64,000 nt of DNA from positions 13,186 to 77,185 of the forward strand of contig JAZOWN010000006.1 in the NCBI GenBank assembly GCA_045659245.1, written 5' to 3'. The position numbers and the translations under genes are program-made. The notes below the pieces were generated by a model that saw nothing but the letters and a program-made list of their open reading frames with translations, did not search any database and was not told the origin of the DNA. This stretch comes from Eubacteriales bacterium (GTDB lineage: Bacteria > Bacillota > Clostridia > Oscillospirales > CAG-272). Each line of letters begins with the position of its first letter. The first letter of the stretch is position 1. Positions 800-59,932 of the stretch are shown here, in pieces.

Positions 800-1100
800 T
801 AAGTATTTACAGTATAAAAATAACCCCGTCCTAAAAACATAGGACGGGGTAAAATACTCCGCGGTACCACCTAAATTTCAGCTTTTGCTGACACTCAGTC
901 AACGTATAACGGCGTCGCCCGTGCTCCGCTACCTTTAAATATTCACAGAGCCTGCTCCGAAGTGAAATGCCGACGTACGTTTAGCAACCGCTTTCAGCCA
1001 AGGCGGTATTCTCTGAGGCAAGTGACGTGCGCAAGCGAGCTTCATCAATGCATTTTTATATCACTCCGTATATTATATCACAAAAATTCCTTTTTTGCAA
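800..1100 (-). promoter_or_regulatory. T-box leader (candidate Phe specifier) with its promoter, upstream of pheS
   Basis: All on the minus strand. The promoter is TTGCAA (1095-1100), a 17-nt spacer, then TATAAT (1072-1077). Stem-I shows AGAGA and GGCUGAAAG elements. A UUC triplet followed by A lies at 966-964. The T-box core UAGGUGGUACCGCGGAG is the reverse complement of 857-878. The terminator is CCCCGUCCU/AGGACGGGG plus a U-run (814-850). Confidence 0.85.
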
Positions 1101-12268: not shown

Positions 12269-13882
12269 ATGTCTGAAGAAAAAAGTAAAAAGCAGCAGTT
12301 AGACGACTTTTGGGATATTTCGTCGCTTGTTCCCCAAAAGAGGAGCTTTGCTCCCTCGTCAAAATCCGTAGACACGGTTCTCATTACTGACGGCGAGAAA
12401 AAAAGAGAGAGCGGAGAGGTAAAAATCACCGAGAGCAGCACCGTTATCGAGAGATTTATTCCGCCCCACACGCCCGACGAGCTTCGTCCGCAGCTTGCGC
12501 CGTACGACGAATACGTTCCCGAAAGCCCCCTTATTCATAAGGTTTCACTGTATAGGGAGCCGTCTTCGTATAATTTCTATGAGGATTTCTGTCGCACCGC
12601 AAAGCGGCTTTGGAACGAGTCCGCGACGGAGTGCGAATACGTTGATTTCTTCTCATACTCGCCGCAGTATAACCAGCTCGCCGCCGACCAGCTCTCATAT
12701 TACCTTTGGTGGAGAGAAAACGTAAGGCGCGGTGTATACCTTAAAACCAATATCTGCTACATCAATCTTTATACGTTCGAGCTTATAAACACGCGAGAAG
12801 TAATTGAACTCATTGAAGCAAGAGAAATGATGATAAGGGTGCTTGAAGCCTACCGCTCGGTGCTTCTCGGTACGATACCGAAGTATATACGCTGGATCTC
12901 TGATTTCAGCCTTGTGCATCACCTGCCGCCACCTAAAAAGTTCGACGCGAAGCTTTTGGAGAAGGCGAGCGCCTTGAAGGAATATTTTATGTGTGTTGCG
13001 GGGAACACCGCCGAGGGCTGGGCGCATATGCTTTTGACATACTGCACCTCGTACGACTACCGCATGAGTAAATTCGCGACGGAGGAAAACATCGCGCTCT
13101 TTGAGGAGCACGTGCCGAAGGCTATTGCAAGGGTAGTTGAAAAGCTGTCAGAGAACGGGAAGATACTTTCCGCGCTGCCGTTTAACGACTGCAAAATAAG
13201 CGCAAAAGCGTTTGACGGAGCTGTCTGCTCGTCGGAAAACAGGGTTATAATTGACGTTGAATATTGCTCGTTTTCGCGCTCGCACGAATTACGCTTTCTC
13301 ATTGGAGATGCGGTAAAGCAAGCGGAAAACAAGATAAGAGCGCACATTTCGGTAAAGTCAAGGCTTACCGTGTATTCCTTGCCGCTCGAACTTTGTCAGG
13401 TGATAAACGAGTATTTCGACAGAGCGTTGCCCGTAGTCAGAAAGTCGAGAGCAAAGGCGGAAGCACCGACGGAATACGATGTGCTTTACGACGTTCCGAG
13501 AACCAAGCTCAGTATTTCCAACGCTCAAAAAATAGAATCGGAGTCTTGGGATACCACCAAGGAGCTGGTGGGAGATTTTGAAGAAAGTCCGATAGAGGAA
13601 AAACCTCGGATTATGGAAATCGAGTCGGTAATAAAAGAGAGCGGGGAAGCTGACGAGCCGTCGCTTTTGTCGGCGCTTGGCGAGTACGCAGATGCGGTCA
13701 TATCACTTGCAAAAGGGGAGAGCATAGCGCTTTTTGCTCTTTCAAAATCTCTTGGCAGACCTACGGAGGCTGTCGTTGACGTGATAAACGAGATAGCAGC
13801 CTGCGCTATCGGGGATATACTCATTGAGGAAAACGACGGTCAGTATTCGGTAATAGAAGACTATCTTGAACTTATAAATTAA
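12269..13882 (+). CDS. TerB-N/TerB-C domain protein (Shango SngA-like)
   Basis: The ATG at 12269 follows an AAAGGGGA RBS. The TerB-N signature reads YVDFFSYSPQYNQLAADQLSYYLWWRENVRRG. The acidic C-terminal TerB-C-like module reads LLSALGEYADAVISLAKG..VVDVINEIAACAIGDILIEE. Its stop overlaps the next ATG (TAATG at 13880-13884). Confidence 0.8.
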   Translation: MSEEKSKKQQLDDFWDISSLVPQKRSFAPSSKSVDTVLITDGEKKRESGEVKITESSTVIERFIPPHTPDELRPQLAPYDEYVPESPLIHKVSLYREPSSYNFYEDFCRTAKRLWNESATECEYVDFFSYSPQYNQLAADQLSYYLWWRENVRRGVYLKTNICYINLYTFELINTREVIELIEAREMMIRVLEAYRSVLLGTIPKYIRWISDFSLVHHLPPPKKFDAKLLEKASALKEYFMCVAGNTAEGWAHMLLTYCTSYDYRMSKFATEENIALFEEHVPKAIARVVEKLSENGKILSALPFNDCKISAKAFDGAVCSSENRVIIDVEYCSFSRSHELRFLIGDAVKQAENKIRAHISVKSRLTVYSLPLELCQVINEYFDRALPVVRKSRAKAEAPTEYDVLYDVPRTKLSISNAQKIESESWDTTKELVGDFEESPIEEKPRIMEIESVIKESGEADEPSLLSALGEYADAVISLAKGESIALFALSKSLGRPTEAVVDVINEIAACAIGDILIEENDGQYSVIEDYLELIN

Positions 13883-17541: not shown

Positions 17542-17830
17542 TTGACAAGTGACAAAGCTTGGAGTATTATATTAGCAATGGCTGTGATAAGGACAGGCGA
17601 GGATTTTGAAATTACAGAGAGCCGTTGGTTGGTGTGAAACGGTGTTTCGTTCCTTTTGCTAAATCACCTTTGAGCTCGCTGCCGAAAGCCCCACGGCAAG
17701 TAGAACAGCGCGTATTCCTGCGTTAGAGGAGAGTGTATGATAAGTACACGGTGAGTGGTCGTTTGACAAAAAGAGTGGTACCGCGGAAGCTTTACGCCTT
17801 CGCCTCTTAAGATAGGGGCGAAGGCTTTTT
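17542..17830 (+). promoter_or_regulatory. promoter plus T-box leader (candidate Ile specifier AUC) controlling ilvA-ridA
   Basis: The promoter is TTGACA (17542-17547), 17 nt, then TATTAT (17565-17570). Stem-I reads AGAGAGCCGUUGGUUGGUGUGAAACGG. AUC followed by A lies at 17663-17666. The T-box core AAGAGUGGUACCGCGG is at 17771-17786. The terminator is GCCUUCGCCUCU / AGGGGCGAAGGC plus UUUUU (17796-17830). Confidence 0.85.
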
Positions 17831-19552: not shown

Positions 19553-19880
19553 TTGACAAAATGCGGTTTTTGTGGTAAAATATCCGCAACAAGTTTTTAT
19601 TATAATGTAGGGCTTTGAAGGGAAGCAGTAGTTTGCGATGCATTTTCAGAAAGTCGGCGGGTGATGCGAGCCGATAATGCGAGCTTATGAATCTCATCCC
19701 CGAGCTTCCGCTTGAAGGCAAGGTCTTGTTGCTGCGTAGGTGCGGACGGTGTGTTCCCGTTATCATGAACAACCTCACTAATTGGCGAGGGAAAGTGGCA
19801 TTTATTGCAATAAGAGTGGTACCGCAGAGAGTTTATTAGACCTTTGTCTCTTGAAATTTGAGAGATAAAGGTCTTTTTTG
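19553..19880 (+). promoter_or_regulatory. promoter plus T-box leader (candidate Leu specifier CUC) controlling the ilv-leu operon
   Basis: The promoter is TTGACA (19553-19558), 17 nt, then TAAAAT (19576-19581). Stem-I has AGAAAG..GGGUGAUGCGAG. CUC followed by A lies at 19693-19696, and an overlapping AUC at 19691-19693 makes the specifier ambiguous. The T-box core AAGAGUGGUACCGCAG is at 19812-19827. A 14-bp terminator AGACCUUUGUCUCU / AGAGAUAAAGGUCU plus a U-run spans 19838-19879. Confidence 0.85.
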
Positions 19881-44691: not shown

Positions 44692-44982
44692 TTGACAAAA
44701 AAATCGTTTTGGAGTATAATTTTCTCGTAAACCTATGATTAAGAATAGTAGTTAAAGTTATTGATTTTCAGAGAGCCAACGGTGGTGTGAGTTTTGGTAT
44801 TCAATCTTTAGTGAATGGACTTATGAGGGCGGCCGAAAGAGATTTTTTGAGTAGTAACCGACGGAACCGGATCCGTTACAGTTCGGAGTTGCTGAGTGGC
44901 AACGCACAGAGTGGGCGCACGTCGCCAATCACGGGTGGTACCGCAGGTTTTCCTGTCCCTGAACGTAGGGGCAGATTTTTTG
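44692..44982 (+). promoter_or_regulatory. promoter plus T-box leader with Trp specifier (UGG) controlling trpB
   Basis: The promoter is TTGACA (44692-44697), 17 nt, then TATAAT (44715-44720). Stem-I reads AGAGAGCCAACGGUGGUGUGAG. GAA-UGG-A places UGG at 44816-44818. The T-box core GGGUGGUACCGCAG is at 44933-44946. The terminator is CUGUCCCU/AGGGGCAG plus a U-run (44953-44981). Confidence 0.88.
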
Positions 44983-46366: not shown

Positions 46367-46580
46367 ATGCTATAATGTGAGCGTATGTCAGGGGTGTACG
46401 CAGTACTTAATAAGGAATTCGGTGAAAATCCGAAACGAGCGTGTCGCCGTATGCAAAAACAGGTGCGAAAGCAAGCTCGCCGCAGAGCTTGTTATCCATT
46501 GGACTTTTGTCTGAGAAGGTTTTTTGCGACCTTGCGCGAAAGCGCATTTTGCTAAGTCGGAAGACTTGCCCCGTAAGCTT
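46348..46580 (+). promoter_or_regulatory. promoter plus cobalamin (B12) riboswitch
   Basis: The promoter is TTGACT (46348-46353), 17 nt, then TGcTATAAT (46371-46376). The aptamer core reads AAUAAGGAAUUCGGUGAAAAUCCGAAACGAGCG..CGCC, followed by CCAUUGG..CUGAGAAGG. The B12-box-like AAGUCGGAAGACUUGCC lies at 46554-46570. Confidence 0.8.
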
Positions 46581-46656
46581 TTTACCGCACGGACCGGATC
46601 GATAAAAACGATGAAAGCTTGGTATGCGAGAAAAATAAAATTTTAGGAGAATTAAA

Positions 46657-47721: not shown

Positions 47722-47896
47722 TTGACTTTACGGTTACTATGTGGTATAATATATTCGTTAAGGGCTGTGTGCCTTTTTATGGCTTTTTGTGACCGACGGA
47801 TAAGTAGAAAAAACTACATGGGAGCAGGAAGTAATATAGCCGACCGTCTGGGCAGTCCTTTACCTTTGGGTAGGACTGCCCATATTTATTTTTTTG
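47722..47896 (+). promoter_or_regulatory. promoter plus ZTP (pfl-motif) riboswitch with terminator expression platform, upstream of the pur operon
   Basis: The promoter is TTGACT (47722-47727), 17 nt, then TGgTATAAT (47745-47750). The 5' subdomain is UGUGACCGACGGAUAAGUAG..CUACAUGGGAGC. After a linker, the 3' subdomain is CCGACCGUCUGGGCAG. The terminator GGGCAGUCCU (47850-47859) / AGGACUGCCC (47872-47881) plus a U-run overlaps the pseudoknot strand. Confidence 0.8.
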
Positions 47897-57800: not shown

Positions 57801-58528
57801 GTGCGGGAGCACAGCCTGAGATATTCGTAATAAATAACCTTTCCTCAAAGGGAATTTCCGACTCCGTTGAGGAGTTCGCAAGACTTGCAGCTCAGTCGCA
57901 GATCATCTTCGTTCCCGGTGGATTCTCCGGTGGTGACGAGCCCGATGGATCGGGTAAGTTCATTACTGCGTTCTTCCGTAACGGCGTTATCAAGGAAGAG
58001 GTTAATAAGCTTCTTAAGGTAAGAGGCGGACTTATGTGCGGTATCTGTAACGGATTCCAGGCTATAATCAAGCTCGGTCTTGTACCTTACGGAGAGATAA
58101 TAGATACCGATGCTTCTTGCCCCACCTTGACGTTTAACTCTATTGGACGTCACCAGTCGAGAATAGTTCGCACGAGAATTGCGTCCAACAAATCTCCTTG
58201 GCTTGCAAAGGCAAAGGTTGGCGACGTTTACAACGTGCCGATCTCTCACGGTGAGGGAAGATTCCTCGCTTCCGACGAGCTTATCGCGCGTCTTGCGGAG
58301 AACGGACAGATCGCAACTCAGTATGTTGACCTTAGCGGTAAGCCCACCTCCAACATTCTCTTTAACCCCAACAACTCCTGCGCGGCAATCGAGGGAATAA
58401 CCTCTCCCGACGGTCACGTATTCGGAAAGATGGGACACTCCGAGAGATTTTCGGACGGACTTTACAAGAACGTCGAGGGTAACTACGACATGATGATGTT
58501 CGAGTCCGCAGTTGAATACTTCAAATAA
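54836..58528 (+). CDS. purL: phosphoribosylformylglycinamidine synthase, single-chain large form (PurS-PurL-PurQ fused)
   Basis: 1230-aa protein. The FGAM synthetase core has ETHNHPTEIEPFGGAATCIGG. The C-terminal GATase has GICNGFQ and a HGEGRF triad region. Confidence 0.93.
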   Translation: MVYRVYVEKKKELANEAKALLSELRNLVGIKELTDVRLYNRYDVEKIEKSLFDYAVTTVFSEPQLDLVTYEQPTEYDTVFAVEYLPGQFDQRADSAAQCIQIISRGERPVVRTARVYCLFGNLSEEQIATIKKYVINPVESREASLDTYDTLDVTYDIPTEVKVIDGFIDYEEAELAKFVLDYGLAMDIDDIRFCRDYFRTENRNPTITEIKMIDTYWSDHCRHTTFLTTIDSVRFDDALLQNAYNEYIAVRRELGRTKPVNLMDIATIATRYLKANGKLPKLDESEEINACTVKIKVNVEGEEQDWLLLFKNETHNHPTEIEPFGGAATCIGGAIRDPLSGRSYVYAAMRVTGAADPRKSVSETLAGKLPQRKIVTTAAAGYSSYGNQIGLATGQVDELYHDGYVAKRMEIGAVIAAAPAENVRREVPTDGDIIILLGGRTGRDGCGGATGSSKSHTLESLESCGAGVQKGNAPEETKLQRLFRNPEASKLIKRCNAFGAGGVSVAIGELADGVNINLNAVPKKYEGLDGTELAISESQERMAVVVDKNDEAKFIELAGKENLEATVVATVTELPRLVMHWNGKVIVDLSREFLNSNGAEKHIDVVAKAPESFDKVTSGSFGERMSALATDLNVCSKRGLSERFDSTIGAGTVMMPFGGKNQSTPSQVMVNKISVESKDTDTCSYMAWGYNPFISEKSPYHGAYLAVVESVSKMIAGGASFEDVYLTFQEYFEKPKKDSARWGKPMAALLGAFMAQKDLGIASIGGKDSMSGSFENIDVPPTLVSFAVTTGKTGEVVTPEFKKADSKVYWLRPDYDENGLPVAESLMALYNKVRALVEDGKVLAAYTPTYGGVAEAIMKMSFGNDVGFKYADGTDMDEIFKYSYGSFILEVADGSCACGQLLGATTEDNAITFGAETVDMTALYADYENVLEKVFPVNATEAEGEIPTFSYECENRAPALIKCDRPKVLIPVFPGTNCEYDSAKAFLRAGAQPEIFVINNLSSKGISDSVEEFARLAAQSQIIFVPGGFSGGDEPDGSGKFITAFFRNGVIKEEVNKLLKVRGGLMCGICNGFQAIIKLGLVPYGEIIDTDASCPTLTFNSIGRHQSRIVRTRIASNKSPWLAKAKVGDVYNVPISHGEGRFLASDELIARLAENGQIATQYVDLSGKPTSNILFNPNNSCAAIEGITSPDGHVFGKMGHSERFSDGLYKNVEGNYDMMMFESAVEYFK

Positions 58529-58547
58529 GATCTATTGATCTAAAAAA

Positions 58548-58584
58548 AGACGGTGAATTTTAATTCACCTTCTTTTGTTTTTTT
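58548..58584. terminator. bidirectional terminator between purL (+) and the four-helix-bundle gene (-)
   Basis: The stem AGACGGTGAAT / ATTCACCTTCT has one mismatch. An A-run lies upstream (58542-58548) and a T-run downstream (58573-58584). Confidence 0.8.
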
Positions 58585-58647
58585 ATATTAGTAAAGATAG
58601 GAAATCTACAGATTTTCATATTTATTTATCATGATAAAATATTATCG

Positions 58648-58998
58648 TTATTTCATTCTGCTTTCCATAGTGATGCAAGATGCGGTTAACATTCTTTTTA
58701 TTCTTCCGCAAAGATTACGATGTGTCTTAAATGTTTGCTCATCTATTGCCCCCGATGCAAAAATCAGCTTAAGCCAACTCTCGGTTTCTGCGCACTCCTT
58801 GCGGGCGATTTCAAACTTAGAGTGCATGTCGGCAAGGCTTTGTGGGTATTGTGCCTCCGTTATGTTGGCAAAGACACTTGAAGAGGATTTTTTTATTTGA
58901 AAAGTGATGTTTGAATCAATTTTGTGCTCAGCGCAGAGTTTAATGATTGTCACAGCCAATTCTTCGCTGTACTCTAAAAGTAAATTTTTCTTTGCCAT
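58648..58998 (-). CDS. four-helix-bundle protein (23S rRNA-intervening-sequence / Avd family)
   Basis: 116-aa all-helical protein. Its pattern LLEYSEELAVTIIKLC..SSSSVFANITEA..KFEIARKECAETESWLKL resembles the TIGR02436-type four-helix-bundle family. Confidence 0.7.
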   Translation of the reverse strand: MAKKNLLLEYSEELAVTIIKLCAEHKIDSNITFQIKKSSSSVFANITEAQYPQSLADMHSKFEIARKECAETESWLKLIFASGAIDEQTFKTHRNLCGRIKRMLTASCITMESRMK

Positions 58999-59021
58999 AT
59001 CAATTATACCTTTGCCTGTAA

Positions 59022-59186
59022 TTAATCACGCGTCAGCGTGTATGTAATCCGCAACTTGTTGCGGTATGGACTCGACACAAAGTGTCGTATGGAATCAAGA
59101 CCGAAGAAAAAATATTCGCGGATGAGCCGCAATTCCATGCAATTCGCAGAGCGAATTGATTCCATACTCAAGCCCTGCGGTCTTGA
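59022..59186. other. hairpin-dense structured intergenic element of unknown class
   Basis: There are four perfect short hairpins and one weaker 4-bp pairing. The four are CACGC-GTCA-GCGTG (59027-59040), CCGCAA-CTTG-TTGCGG (59049-59064), CGACAC-AAA-GTGTCG (59073-59087) and CAATTCGC-AGA-GCGAATTG (59140-59158). The weaker one is GCGG..CCGC (59118-59130). Long-range complements are also present: GTATGGAATC (59087-59096) / GATTCCATAC (59158-59167), and CAAGACCG (59096-59103) / CGGTCTTG (59178-59185). Confidence 0.4.
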
Positions 59187-59188
59187 AT

Positions 59189-59227
59189 AAAAACAACCTA
59201 AATCGCTCTGCGATTTAGGTTGTTTTT
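59189..59227 (-). terminator. 17-bp perfect hairpin terminator immediately 3' of tRNA-Lys (symmetric, bidirectional)
   Basis: AAAACAACCTAAATCGC (59190-59206), a TCT loop, then GCGATTTAGGTTGTTTT (59210-59226). Confidence 0.85.
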
Positions 59228-59302
59228 GGTGACCCACCGGAGACTCGAACTCCGGACCCCTTGATTAAAAGTCAAGTGCTCTACCGTCTGAGCTAGTGGG
59301 TC
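59227..59302 (-). tRNA. tRNA-Lys (anticodon UUU), CCA-encoded
   Basis: The minus strand reads GACCCACTAGCTCAGACGGTAGAGCACTTGACTTTTAATCAAGGGGTCCGGAGTTCGAGTCTCCGGTGGGTCACCA. The cloverleaf is complete: a 7-bp acceptor stem, GCTC/GAGC D stem, CTTGA/TCAAG anticodon stem with loop CTTTTAA, and CGGAG/CTCCG T stem with TTCGAGT. Confidence 0.95.
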
Positions 59303-59325
59303 AAGCGTATTTGCGCTACCTATAT

Positions 59326-59354
59326 ATGATACCATATTTTGAGTTGTTTGTCAA
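59326..59354 (-). promoter_or_regulatory. promoter of tRNA-Lys
   Basis: On the minus strand: TTGACA (59349-59354), a 17-nt spacer, then TATCAT (59326-59331). This lies about 24 nt upstream of the tRNA 5' end. Confidence 0.6.
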
Positions 59355-59416
59355 GTTTTTTTAATTTGGCGAGTTGAACAAAAACGGACTCGTATAGTAG
59401 CGCAAATATGTACTTT

Positions 59417-59932
59417 TTAGAGAAGCTCGCGTATTCTATCTGCCAATCTGTAAATGTTTTCGGGTATGATCTCGGGCAGGGGAGATTTGTCGGGATCGGG
59501 GGCTTCGAAGTCGTCATTTAACATGTCGGCGCGAAGTGTTTTTACTATCCACTTGTCGATCCCTTTAAGCTTTTGAGGCTTTAACTCACCTCCGAAAAAA
59601 TGAGTGCCGAGGGAGGGAATAAGCTGCTTAGGAATCTGCATTGAAGCATAGTCCTCAAAGCTATCGGTAAATCCACAGCAAATAAATAGCGCCGTATTCA
59701 TGTCGGAAAGCTTTTGAGCATGCGTCTTCATGTAAGCTTTAAGCTTTTTGTTTAGCTTTCCAAAACGTATTGAACCGCCTATTACCGCAACGTCAAAGCC
59801 ATCGGGGGATGGCGGTGCGTCGTTTATATCGTATACAGATACCTCAAAGCTGCCGGCTAATTTACCGTAAAGCATATTGACGCACTCCTTACTTACTCCG
59901 CCTTTGGTCGAATAAATTATAAGAATTTTCAT
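59417..59932 (-). CDS. flavodoxin-domain protein (short-chain, HemG/Flavodoxin_5-like)
   Basis: 171-aa protein with the N-terminus MKILIIYSTKGGVSKE (FMN phosphate-binding loop) and a downstream IGGSIRFGK block. A GAGGAAA RBS precedes the start. Confidence 0.75.
   Translation of the reverse strand: MKILIIYSTKGGVSKECVNMLYGKLAGSFEVSVYDINDAPPSPDGFDVAVIGGSIRFGKLNKKLKAYMKTHAQKLSDMNTALFICCGFTDSFEDYASMQIPKQLIPSLGTHFFGGELKPQKLKGIDKWIVKTLRADMLNDDFEAPDPDKSPLPEIIPENIYRLADRIRELL

Follow-up and report, generated by a model that had tools for sequence, protein, structure and literature searches.

A tRNA-docked hairpin array beside a four-helix-bundle gene as a diverged relative of the Gut-1 RNA

What occupies the roughly 190 nt of hairpin-rich DNA between a tRNA-Lys gene and a gene for a small four-helix-bundle (4HB) protein in a member of the Clostridia? 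The question is raised by a 64-kb stretch of an Eubacteriales bacterium genome (GenBank assembly GCA_045659245.1, contig JAZOWN010000006.1, forward-strand positions 13,186 to 77,185; hereafter the window), in which the stretch at issue runs from a terminator down to position 58999. An earlier note, made from the sequence alone, had described a structured, RNA-like element of unexplained function. We find that the element is genuine, conserved and non-coding, but that it has a precedent: the finding is real and not ordinary, and it is a variant of the kind known as Gut-1. Very probably, in both identity and anatomy, the stretch 59226..58999 on the minus strand represents a conserved modular element in slightly decayed form, a sequence-diverged relative of Gut-1. 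It is well supported that terminator, array and 4HB gene behave as one cassette on the CCA ends of tRNAs of many isotypes in rumen and gut Clostridia. New here are the full anatomy, the strand symmetry, the docking on tRNA 3′ ends and the partnership with the 4HB gene. Coordinates are window positions, the sense strand of the element is the minus strand, as it is for the two genes that flank it, and L-numbers are labels of individual loci. In sense order, the locus reads as follows.

59326..59354, minus strand: promoter-like site of the tRNA gene, TTGACA-17-TATCAT, TG-extended, matching the consensus at 11/12 positions, 24 nt upstream of the tRNA start
59227..59302, minus strand: tRNA-Lys(UUU) with encoded CCA end (ARAGORN; Rfam tRNA, 70 bits)
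59189..59227, both strands: intrinsic terminator, bidirectional, a perfect 18-bp stem with a 3-nt loop between an A-run and a T-run; it forms the module's left end
59169..59185, minus strand: base hairpin P0, CAAGACC-GCA-GGGCUUG, with one A.G mismatch
59159..59166, minus strand: left linker L1, UAUGGAAU, an 8-mer conserved at the same position across the family
59140..59158, minus strand: left hairpin 1, an inverted repeat of 8 bp with a 3-nt loop
59132..59139, minus strand: left linker L2, CAUGGAAU
59117..59131, minus strand: left hairpin 2, a U.G closing pair plus GCGG/CCGC (4 bp), with a 5-nt loop
59107..59116, minus strand: junction AAUAUUUUUU, where the third left unit is gone (deletion of about 22 nt)
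59096..59106, minus strand: center CUUCGGUCUUG, the 3′ strand of long-range helix P1, pairing with 59178-59185
59088..59095, minus strand: right linker R1, AUUCCAUA, the reverse complement of the left linker
59073..59087, minus strand: right hairpin 1, CGACAC-UUU-GUGUCG, 6 bp with a 3-nt loop
59065..59072, minus strand: right linker R2, AGUCCAUA, a degenerate copy
59049..59064, minus strand: right hairpin 2, CCGCAAC-AA-GUUGCGG, 6-7 bp, among the commonest hairpin types of the family
59041..59048, minus strand: right linker R3, AUUACAUA
59027..59040, minus strand: right hairpin 3, CACGC-UGAC-GCGUG, 5 bp with a 4-nt loop
58999..59026, minus strand: tail from array to start codon, AUUAAUUACAGGCAAAGGUAUAAUUGAU, with Shine-Dalgarno-like AAAGG and a TATAAT 4 nt ahead of the ATG
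58648..58998, minus strand: 4HB gene, 116 aa (PF05635 / 23S_rRNA_IVP)

The module starts directly after the last base of tRNA-Lys(UUU). Its terminator is perfect, bidirectional and adjacent to the tRNA 3′ end, as previously described, but with 100% complementary arms of 18 nt each (59189-59206 and 59210-59227) rather than 17. Likewise, the four perfect hairpins reported before all exist, but their number is five. Both long-range complements that had been noticed are present as well: CAAGACCG/CGGTCTTG joins 59096-59103 to 59178-59185 and is the conserved helix P1, whose 5′ strand doubles as the 5′ arm of P0 (59178-59185), and GTATGGAATC/GATTCCATAC, with an (AA)/(TT) extension, gives 12 perfect bp between 59087-59098 and 59156-59167.

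More than 120 loci from Clostridia of rumen and gut share this architecture. Database relatives of the 4HB protein number 1615, the majority on very short contigs, and those of 68-90% identity occupy unrelated gene neighborhoods; an array-based search of a metagenome collection, using P0 plus L1 (25 nt) as query, gave 68 loci. Reading the intergenic regions side by side yields a family consensus with six parts.

First: the tRNA CCA end, followed by a terminator of A-run, stem-loop and T-run
Second: the base hairpin P0, CCAAKCC-GAA-GGMTTGG
Third: the left units, three in number, in which an 8-nt linker (UAUGGAAU, UAUGGCAU or UAUGUAAU) leads into a GC hairpin of 4-8 bp
Fourth: the center strand, ..CCUUCGGMUUG, able to pair with the P0 5′ arm instead (P1)
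Fifth: three or four right units, with linker AUUCCAUA or AUUACAUA, the reverse complement of the left linker
Sixth: the Shine-Dalgarno sequence and ATG of a small gene, most often a PF05635 4HB gene, preceded in other clades by a promoter

In the intact module the left linker is generally of RUGNAAU type, and across clades it takes the form R-T-G-N-A-W-T. The window shares the family context, with a terminator on a tRNA CCA end at the left and a small-gene start at the right. Moreover, a covariance model that we call R1, built from 39 other loci with the window excluded, matches 59191..59088 on the minus strand at 71.9 bits (E=1.3e-13), the sole strong match in the 64 kb, and matches the right half of the window array at 25.7 bits on the opposite strand. 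Individual hairpins also have counterparts: left hairpin 2 is of a type present in L008, L015, L017 and L032, and the arm CCGCAA of right hairpin 2 was counted 15 times in family arrays. Relative to the intact module, the window array is of type LLRRR, with two left and three right units instead of three plus three or four. The third left unit of relatives, AUGGCAU plus a hairpin by comparison with L008 and L017, is absent; the 4HB gene departs from the family in its last 6 codons, and it is followed neither by the terminator proper to the family nor by the 45-nt tail. The lost third left unit and the divergent 3′ end mark the array and gene of the window as a somewhat decayed copy in which the open reading frame (ORF) is intact. 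Truncated arrays occur in L018, L035, L041 and L331.

Further variation was seen among relatives. The right unit ATTACATaccgcctttggcgg is tandemly expanded in L050 (~2800-2990), with five copies in the array, four of them consecutive, which shows unit-level slippage or unequal exchange. A conserved clade-A tail of about 45 nt after the 4HB terminator, GAGCCGACTTGT-loop-ACAAGCACACGCCACGGTGCCA(A), ends in a tRNA-3′-like GCCA, beyond which the flanks diverge (L008, L009, L013, L014, L016, L017, L019, L028, L029, L031-L033, L040, L042 and L044). Clade B carries, about 10-300 nt past the 4HB stop, a conserved block made up of a promoter-like TGGACT-16-TATAAT, a hairpin and a small ORF (MEYELKHYY..., ~90 aa) that may be a second cassette gene (L052, L055, L063, L069-L073 and L079-L083); in L071 the block also follows a tRNA-Val.

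Is the structure itself under constraint? The earlier note had staked its case on conservation and covariation of the hairpins in relatives, and both are present, including in the CAAGACCG/CGGTCTTG helix. Among 280 inter-linker pieces from 55 distinct arrays, 218 are perfect hairpins of at least 4 bp, versus 2.1 in shuffles, with 85 different 5′ arms and with 1535 Watson-Crick against 78 non-Watson-Crick pairs. A hand count of the mismatch list gave 7 internal G.U versus 4 A.C pairs, which does not decide the strand, and the polarity of the closing pair belongs to the inverted linker motif. RNAalifold, run on 39 left domains, recovers P1. In these 39 loci, 95.3% of P1 cells are paired, both-side changes affect 57 cells, and 7 of 11 pairs show compensatory change, a level reached in 0/500 shuffles; P0 is 95.6% paired, with compensatory change in 4 of 7 pairs. 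Because P0 and P1 share a strand, they are mutually exclusive alternatives. The window sequence folds with a z-score of -6.9 on the plus strand with the terminator included (equalled by 0/200 shuffles) and of -2.7 on the sense strand with the terminator excluded (2/200). A canonical array likewise folds beyond shuffles, whether as RNA (z -6.6) or as DNA (z -7.4), and its energy-minimized form in both cases is P0 plus a ladder of linker-linker pairs. We rejected this ladder as a conserved structure: although favored thermodynamically, its pairing within clades barely exceeds a cross-array control, and it shows one clade-level compensatory switch. Finally, the 8-mers and hairpins are preserved at a synonymous divergence (dS) above 1 in the adjacent ORF, so the element is constrained and not merely young.

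The closest known relative is Gut-1 (Rfam RF01706), which entered the literature in 2010 as a probable non-coding RNA, judged by covariation in 43 sequences from human-gut metagenomes, with no organism, function or context (PMC2864571). The connection to it runs through two unannotated human-gut contigs, L349 and L350, filed as phage, which encode a 4HB protein 42% identical to that of the window. Upstream of this gene, L349 has GTGATATT three times and then AATATCAC three times, and L350 has RTGAAATA three times and then ATTTCATA three to four times; each has its own P0 and complementary center, and the L349 array sits on the CCA end of a tRNA-Arg(ACG) plus terminator. By Rfam, the left halves of these arrays are Gut-1 (59.1 bits for L349, 989-1059; 65 bits for L350, 999-1071; gathering score 50), and the right half of L350 (1115-1179) matches Gut-1 on the opposite strand at 30.8 bits. 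The flanks of sequences in the Gut-1 seed alignment hold the tRNA end, the terminator and the right half. The two groups are nevertheless far apart in sequence. In the window, the Gut-1 model finds nothing at E<=10 within 58400-59500, where an Rfam scan of the kind the earlier note had proposed returned only the tRNA and chance-level matches, and nothing at gathering score in the whole window. It also leaves arrays of the TATGKAAT type undetected, even at E<=10, and R1 in turn fails to detect Gut-1-type arrays. The window does share the Gut-1 design, however, with P0, hairpin 1 and hairpin 2 spaced by R-U-G-N-A-A-U linkers (UAUGGAAU, CAUGGAAU), and both types string GC hairpins together with a conserved 7-8-nt purine-UG-N-AAU linker between them and originate from gut metagenomes of Firmicutes type. 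They differ in the linker, UAUGGAAU/UAUGUAAU versus GUGAAAU, and in that the window type has rumen Clostridia as hosts. Window-type and Gut-1-type arrays are sister clades, tied to each other by architecture, context and the homologous protein. The published Gut-1 motif consists of P0 and two hairpins only; its description included neither P1 nor the inverted right half, nor the setting between tRNA and 4HB gene. The curated model thus covers part of a two-domain element of about 180 nt whose right domain scores on the antisense strand, so both the extent and the strand assignment of Gut-1 probably need revision.

The second partner is the protein. That the flanking gene encodes a 4HB protein of the IVP/Avd family, as had been proposed, is confirmed by its match to PF05635 (71.3 bits against a cut-off of 33.8; E=9.4e-20), and the product is homologous to PDB 2RLD, an entry of 5 chains (E=9.4e-11). 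Its ORF is under strong purifying selection, with a median ratio of nonsynonymous to synonymous divergence (dN/dS) of 0.035, values of 0.02-0.05 for the window gene against relatives, and dS>1. The PF05635 family includes Avd (PMC10053308), and the 23S_rRNA_IVP protein family has been described as functionally uncharacterised (PMC11270868). The association with arrays has limits. In Monoglobus pectinilyticus (L351, NZ_OY725736.1, 80879-81199), an unannotated 4HB-like ORF of 31% identity has no array and sits between hsdS and hsdR of a type I restriction-modification operon. On a Treponema plasmid, what lies ahead of the 4HB gene is a tandem series of about 35 GTGAAAG-type heptads, followed by the same heptads as inverted complement, with no hairpins. 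These two cases indicate that the array association is clade-limited and not universal to PF05635. The Treponema heptad block (~250 nt; L352 360-660) lies directly upstream of the 4HB gene, and its heptad resembles the Gut-1 linker GUGAAAU. Foldback heptad arrays, (CTCTTCA)n...(GTGAAGA)n, were also seen between tRNA terminator and array in L044 (~2590-2750) and L078 (~2523-2760), and foldback heptad repeats follow the array in L284.

The links to the tRNA 3′ flank and to the 4HB gene, first noticed at this single locus, are real and general. Among 70 distinct protein-found loci with enough upstream DNA, a same-strand tRNA lies upstream within 520 nt in 64: it is directly adjacent in 54, and in 10 it is 330-520 nt away with an insert between; no tRNA was called in the other 6. 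Almost always, the same-strand tRNA ends 210-280 nt ahead of the 4HB ATG, and module-bearing tRNAs include 17 anticodon types. The same terminator family follows tRNA-Glu, -Met, -Ala and -Lys, with identical terminators after Asn and Glu and after Cys and Val. The terminator is therefore part of the module, whose left junction falls at the CCA end of the tRNA. Relatives of the genome, with flavodoxin 87-91% identical, retain the promoter and tRNA-Lys, lack the array and the 4HB gene, and have another terminator and other genes after the CCA, so that synteny breaks exactly at the tRNA-Lys 3′ end; R1 gives no matches at these module-free sites. (The protein database supplied these relatives; a flavodoxin-neighbor scan of metagenome contigs found none.) The tRNA-Lys 3′ flank is a hypervariable hotspot, and downstream synteny is not kept at the module-free sites, which therefore mark the left boundary only. 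A comparison of this flank with relatives, as the earlier note had suggested, thus places a boundary at the tRNA-Lys 3′ end, but no att-like repeat of that end occurs downstream. In one relative (L094 1306-2000; flavodoxin 87% identical), a different insert follows tRNA-Lys, and its minus strand encodes what looks, by sequence and without a Pfam scan, like a tyrosine recombinase. At another locus, L065 (1-754), the array-bearing tRNA-Asn ends an rRNA operon (23S 3′ end, tRNAs, 5S, tRNA), so at least some modules trail rRNA-tRNA operons.

Traces of accretion surround some copies. In several loci, a complete tRNA and terminator are followed by a 100-200-nt insert, a duplicated 16-27-nt tRNA 3′ fragment and then the module, and such fragments bracket inserts or arrays in L018, L021, L024, L031, L035, L047, L050 and L085. 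In L035 (3395-3560), two tRNA-Glu 3′ fragments and a heavily deleted, gene-less second array lie past an intact module; L027 and L050 have tRNA fragments after the 4HB gene. The duplicated fragments and the second L035 array are what accretion at the 3′ ends of tRNA genes leaves behind. Downstream direct repeats of the tRNA 3′ end are confined to some relatives (L027, L035, L050 and L066), with none for the window type or in the array-based set. Clustering of ORFs within 3 kb in 82 loci showed no enriched family of neighbors, and in particular no enrichment of recombinase, reverse transcriptase (RT) or transposase genes, none was found near arrays in long metagenome contigs, and the window itself holds no RT, integrase or flanking repeat pair, in agreement with the earlier note. 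The dS>1 between copies argues against recent spread. The inserts have features of their own: in L018, L021, L024, L031, L047, L050 and L085 they open with an inverted copy of the T-arm or 3′ end and close with a direct 3′-end copy, and a GGGGAGCGGTAGTGAA-like motif is common to the interior of some; those of L021, L024, L047 and L085 are without an Rfam match. The inserts may represent att remnants or a second class of mini-insertion at tRNA 3′ ends. Genuine arrays in viral contigs were sought by two three-linker scans, and all 178 loci proved to be unrelated tandem repeats. Assemblies often break at the element.

ORFs between 56000 and 64000 include purL, the flavodoxin-like gene, a DNA_topoisoIV-family topoisomerase subunit, Sua5 and a release factor. 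An Rfam scan of the whole window at gathering score found no rRNA, and its matches included four T-box leaders, a cobalamin riboswitch and a ZMP/ZTP riboswitch (837-1057(-), 17575-17810(+), 19606-19854(+), 44726-44963(+), 46375-46587(+) and 47779-47860(+)), a content that fits a Clostridia chromosome.

How might such a cassette work? We propose, tentatively and at somewhat less than an even chance, that the folded single strand is the cis partner of the 4HB protein and sets cassette expression; binding, the RNA form and the regulatory outcome are the parts that we infer. The array would act as a folded single strand. In the window clade this strand would be the leader RNA of the 4HB mRNA; with no second promoter detectable, transcription would reach it by reading through from the promoter of the tRNA. 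Its hairpins would display five to seven copies of the linker motif, P0 and P1 would offer two exclusive conformations, and this platform would be the cis-acting partner of a pentameric, nucleic-acid-binding 4HB protein whose binding would set expression of the cassette by autoregulation. Several lines of evidence favor this reading. First, the linkage between protein and array persists to 42% identity with a changed linker allele. Second, the 4HB family includes Avd, a pentameric barrel that binds RNA and DNA and works with a structured RNA. Third, a scan found no promoter-like site between terminator and ATG in clades A and B, the window included, and with an ORF there under strong purifying selection the array must lie on the 4HB transcript. 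Also counted in its favor are the R1 match, the covariation and constraint of the hairpins, the linkage to tRNA genes and the heptad block ahead of the Treponema 4HB gene.

A set of observations weighs against a cis-acting RNA partner. Read on the other strand, the right half is of the left type; a one-strand RNA does not predict such a strand-symmetric design, and R1 and the Gut-1 model both match right halves in antisense. Loop polarity flips between the halves as well: on the sense strand in the window clades, GNA/GNNA loops number 21 and TNC/TNNC loops 2 among 65 distinct left units, versus about 1 and 36 among 92 distinct right units. In Gut-1-type loci this polarity is reversed, so the invariant is the opposition between halves and not a fixed polarity. 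Nested linker-linker pairing within arrays, at 85.1% versus 82.6% in the cross-array control, is marginal. The linker allele co-varies with the 4HB clade, which plain co-divergence could explain. The array lies behind a strong terminator. In clade C, in most array-found arrays and in L349, a promoter (TTGATT-17-TGnTATAAT), its -35 box formed by the end of the last unit, lies between array and gene, so the array is not on that mRNA. Finally, 41 of 53 array-found loci with room had no 4HB match by tblastn with the window protein, a search that can miss divergent 4HB proteins; where arrays are followed by other small genes, the 4HB protein would have to act in trans.

Downstream of these 4HB-less arrays come a near-consensus promoter, TTGATT-17-TGCTATAAT, then a strong Shine-Dalgarno sequence and small genes of unrelated kinds, among them DUF975, RDD, YcxB-like, LprI-like lipoprotein and Cys-rich domain genes and unknowns. 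A tRNA T-loop lies upstream in 21 of 51 array-found loci with room, 18 of them also with CCA end and A-run, and one contig, L306, has both a 4HB-linked and a 4HB-less array. It is conceivable, although the chances run against it, that array and PF05635 protein form a two-component, self-contained cassette that colonizes tRNA 3′ ends, the 4HB-less arrays being satellites served in trans.

The downstream promoter of other clades, the upstream terminator, the 4HB-less arrays and the strand symmetry together keep a role at the DNA level a strong rival, though we consider it unlikely. On this account, the array would be a cis site for propagating a small integrative cassette at tRNA 3′ ends, either as the arm of an attachment site or as single-stranded DNA hairpins, with the recombinase, transposase or primase that recognizes them encoded elsewhere. 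C-GNA-G triloops are unusually stable in DNA, and their enrichment on alternate strands, like the strand-symmetric design as a whole, would suit such a site. So would the position of most arrays between terminator and promoter, in poorly transcribed spacer, the left junction that is always a tRNA CCA, the terminator that travels across isotypes, the tRNA 3′ fragments of 16-27 nt duplicated in eight loci, the synteny break at the tRNA-Lys 3′ end with an integrase-like gene, judged by sequence, in one relative, and the frequent assembly breaks. By contrast, recombinase, RT and transposase genes are not enriched in the 82 loci or the long metagenome contigs; most copies, that of the window included, have no flanking tRNA-fragment repeat; the dS>1 between copies speaks against recent spread; a single integrase acting on 17 anticodon classes would not be expected; and viral contigs yielded no genuine arrays.

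An independent, trans-acting small RNA, as which Gut-1 is filed in Rfam, would make the tRNA and the 4HB gene only preferred neighbors. The very strong hairpin covariation and the classification of Gut-1 as a likely non-coding RNA on covariation (PMC2864571) speak for it, and the bidirectional terminator could end an antisense transcript. However, a sense-strand terminator upstream of the array and a promoter downstream are in the wrong order for a separate gene, scans found no conserved antisense promoter for a small RNA ending at the bidirectional terminator, and the fixed position and orientation relative to the next gene's start codon argue for a cis role; we regard this explanation as improbable. 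Improbable, too, is a portable insulated-promoter module, or mobile promoter, in which terminator, structured spacer and strong promoter would make the expression of any small gene behind them independent of context, and the hairpins would be a mere buffer that, for example, blocks read-through or absorbs supercoiling. The recurrence of the same terminator, array and TTGATT-17-TGCTATAAT block ahead of unrelated genes, with the -35 box taken from the last unit, is what such a module would produce. It leaves unexplained the conserved 8-mer linkers, the P0/P1 covariation and the 4HB link across 42% identity; clades A and B, the window among them, have no promoter, and hairpins without U-tracts are not terminators.

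The earlier note had itself suggested an H-type pseudoknot or two interlocked helices, which would form a riboswitch- or attenuator-like leader of the 4HB gene. Both complements exist, P1 covaries, P0 and P1 exclude each other as the arms of a switch do, and a hairpin followed by a U-run is found at 59132..59106 on the sense strand. The two complements are not equivalent, however. The GTATGGAATC/GATTCCATAC complement is the linker motif repeated in two orientations, and the corresponding GUAUGGAAUC/GAUUCCAUAC helix (L1 against R1) has little independent covariation: it is 87.5% paired, one position is unpaired in 24 of 39 sequences, and a single clade-level U-A/G-C switch was seen. Moreover, P1 and L1:R1 have 3′ strands that abut, leaving a loop of 0 nt, so by pseudoknot geometry simultaneous formation and hence a true H-type pseudoknot are unlikely. 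The U-run is specific to the window, because the third left unit is deleted there only and relatives have no U-run, and Rfam riboswitch and cis-regulatory models gave chance-level matches only. We judge this switch very improbable. That the locus is functionless repetitive DNA, a decaying foldback like a miniature inverted-repeat transposable element or bacterial interspersed mosaic element (BIME), or a chance cluster of palindromes, is barely credible: the window copy is partly decayed and truncated arrays exist, but linkers and hairpin potential persist at saturated synonymous divergence, the covariance model gives E=1e-13, and shuffles yield about 2 perfect hairpins versus 218 observed.

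Other candidates were compared and rejected. Type III toxin-antitoxin RNA repeats, CsrA/RsmZ-like GGA sponges, MazF UACAU decoys, Xer/dif-like sites and integron attC each resemble the arrays in part of the sequence only; in each case architecture or the variability of the linker between clades contradicts the match.

More broadly, this locus ties Gut-1, an orphan since 2010, to the uncharacterised IVP 4HB family, and both to tRNA 3′ ends. The real element is about twice the annotated size of Gut-1 and two-fold symmetric, and the family now extends to rumen Clostridia missed by Rfam. The two orphan families become jointly testable, for example by confronting the 4HB pentamer with the linker motif and by asking whether RNA or single-stranded DNA is the active form. 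If the proposed partnership is true, Gut-1 would be the cis partner of the IVP/Avd-like family, and the two together would constitute a novel type of element, selfish or regulatory, at stable-RNA loci. The element is also flagged as a recurrent cause of assembly breaks beside tRNA genes in gut metagenomes.

Several known systems share part of this design. Repetitive extragenic palindromic (REP) sequences and BIMEs, and BOX elements, are likewise multi-copy, intergenic after genes and modular in copy number, with short palindromes and a conserved flank in both orientations. In our arrays, however, it is the palindromes that vary (85 arms in 280 units) around a conserved linker, the reverse of REP, which argues against membership; array order and polarity are fixed relative to the tRNA and the downstream gene; and no RAYT-like gene was seen, whole genomes not having been examined. 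Integrative elements that target tRNA genes and their non-autonomous derivatives (CIME-like accretion) resemble the cassette in the junction at the tRNA 3′ end, the duplicated fragments and the tandem accretion of L035, but here an integrase is absent, most copies lack a direct repeat and at least 17 anticodon classes are targets. Putative mobile promoters, reportedly described by Nijveen, Matus-Garcia and van Passel in 2012 as identical promoter regions upstream of unrelated genes, parallel the array-plus-promoter block ahead of unrelated small genes; they differ from a large, structured, covarying upstream array with a terminator, and the window clade has no promoter. Diversity-generating retroelements are linked through the protein, as the 4HB belongs to the family that includes Avd (PMC10053308). 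By contrast, neither an RT nor a template/variable repeat pair was seen in the window or enriched in the 82 loci. A further parallel is the intervening sequence of rRNA genes, a small insertion with structured flanks, attached to a stable-RNA gene, whose only ORF is of the same protein family. It lies inside a 16S or 23S rRNA helix, whereas the window element follows a tRNA and a terminator, and to our knowledge a hairpin array with repeated linkers is not a described feature of these sequences. If the proposed reading is true, the cassette would be the tRNA counterpart of the IVP-bearing rRNA intervening sequences.

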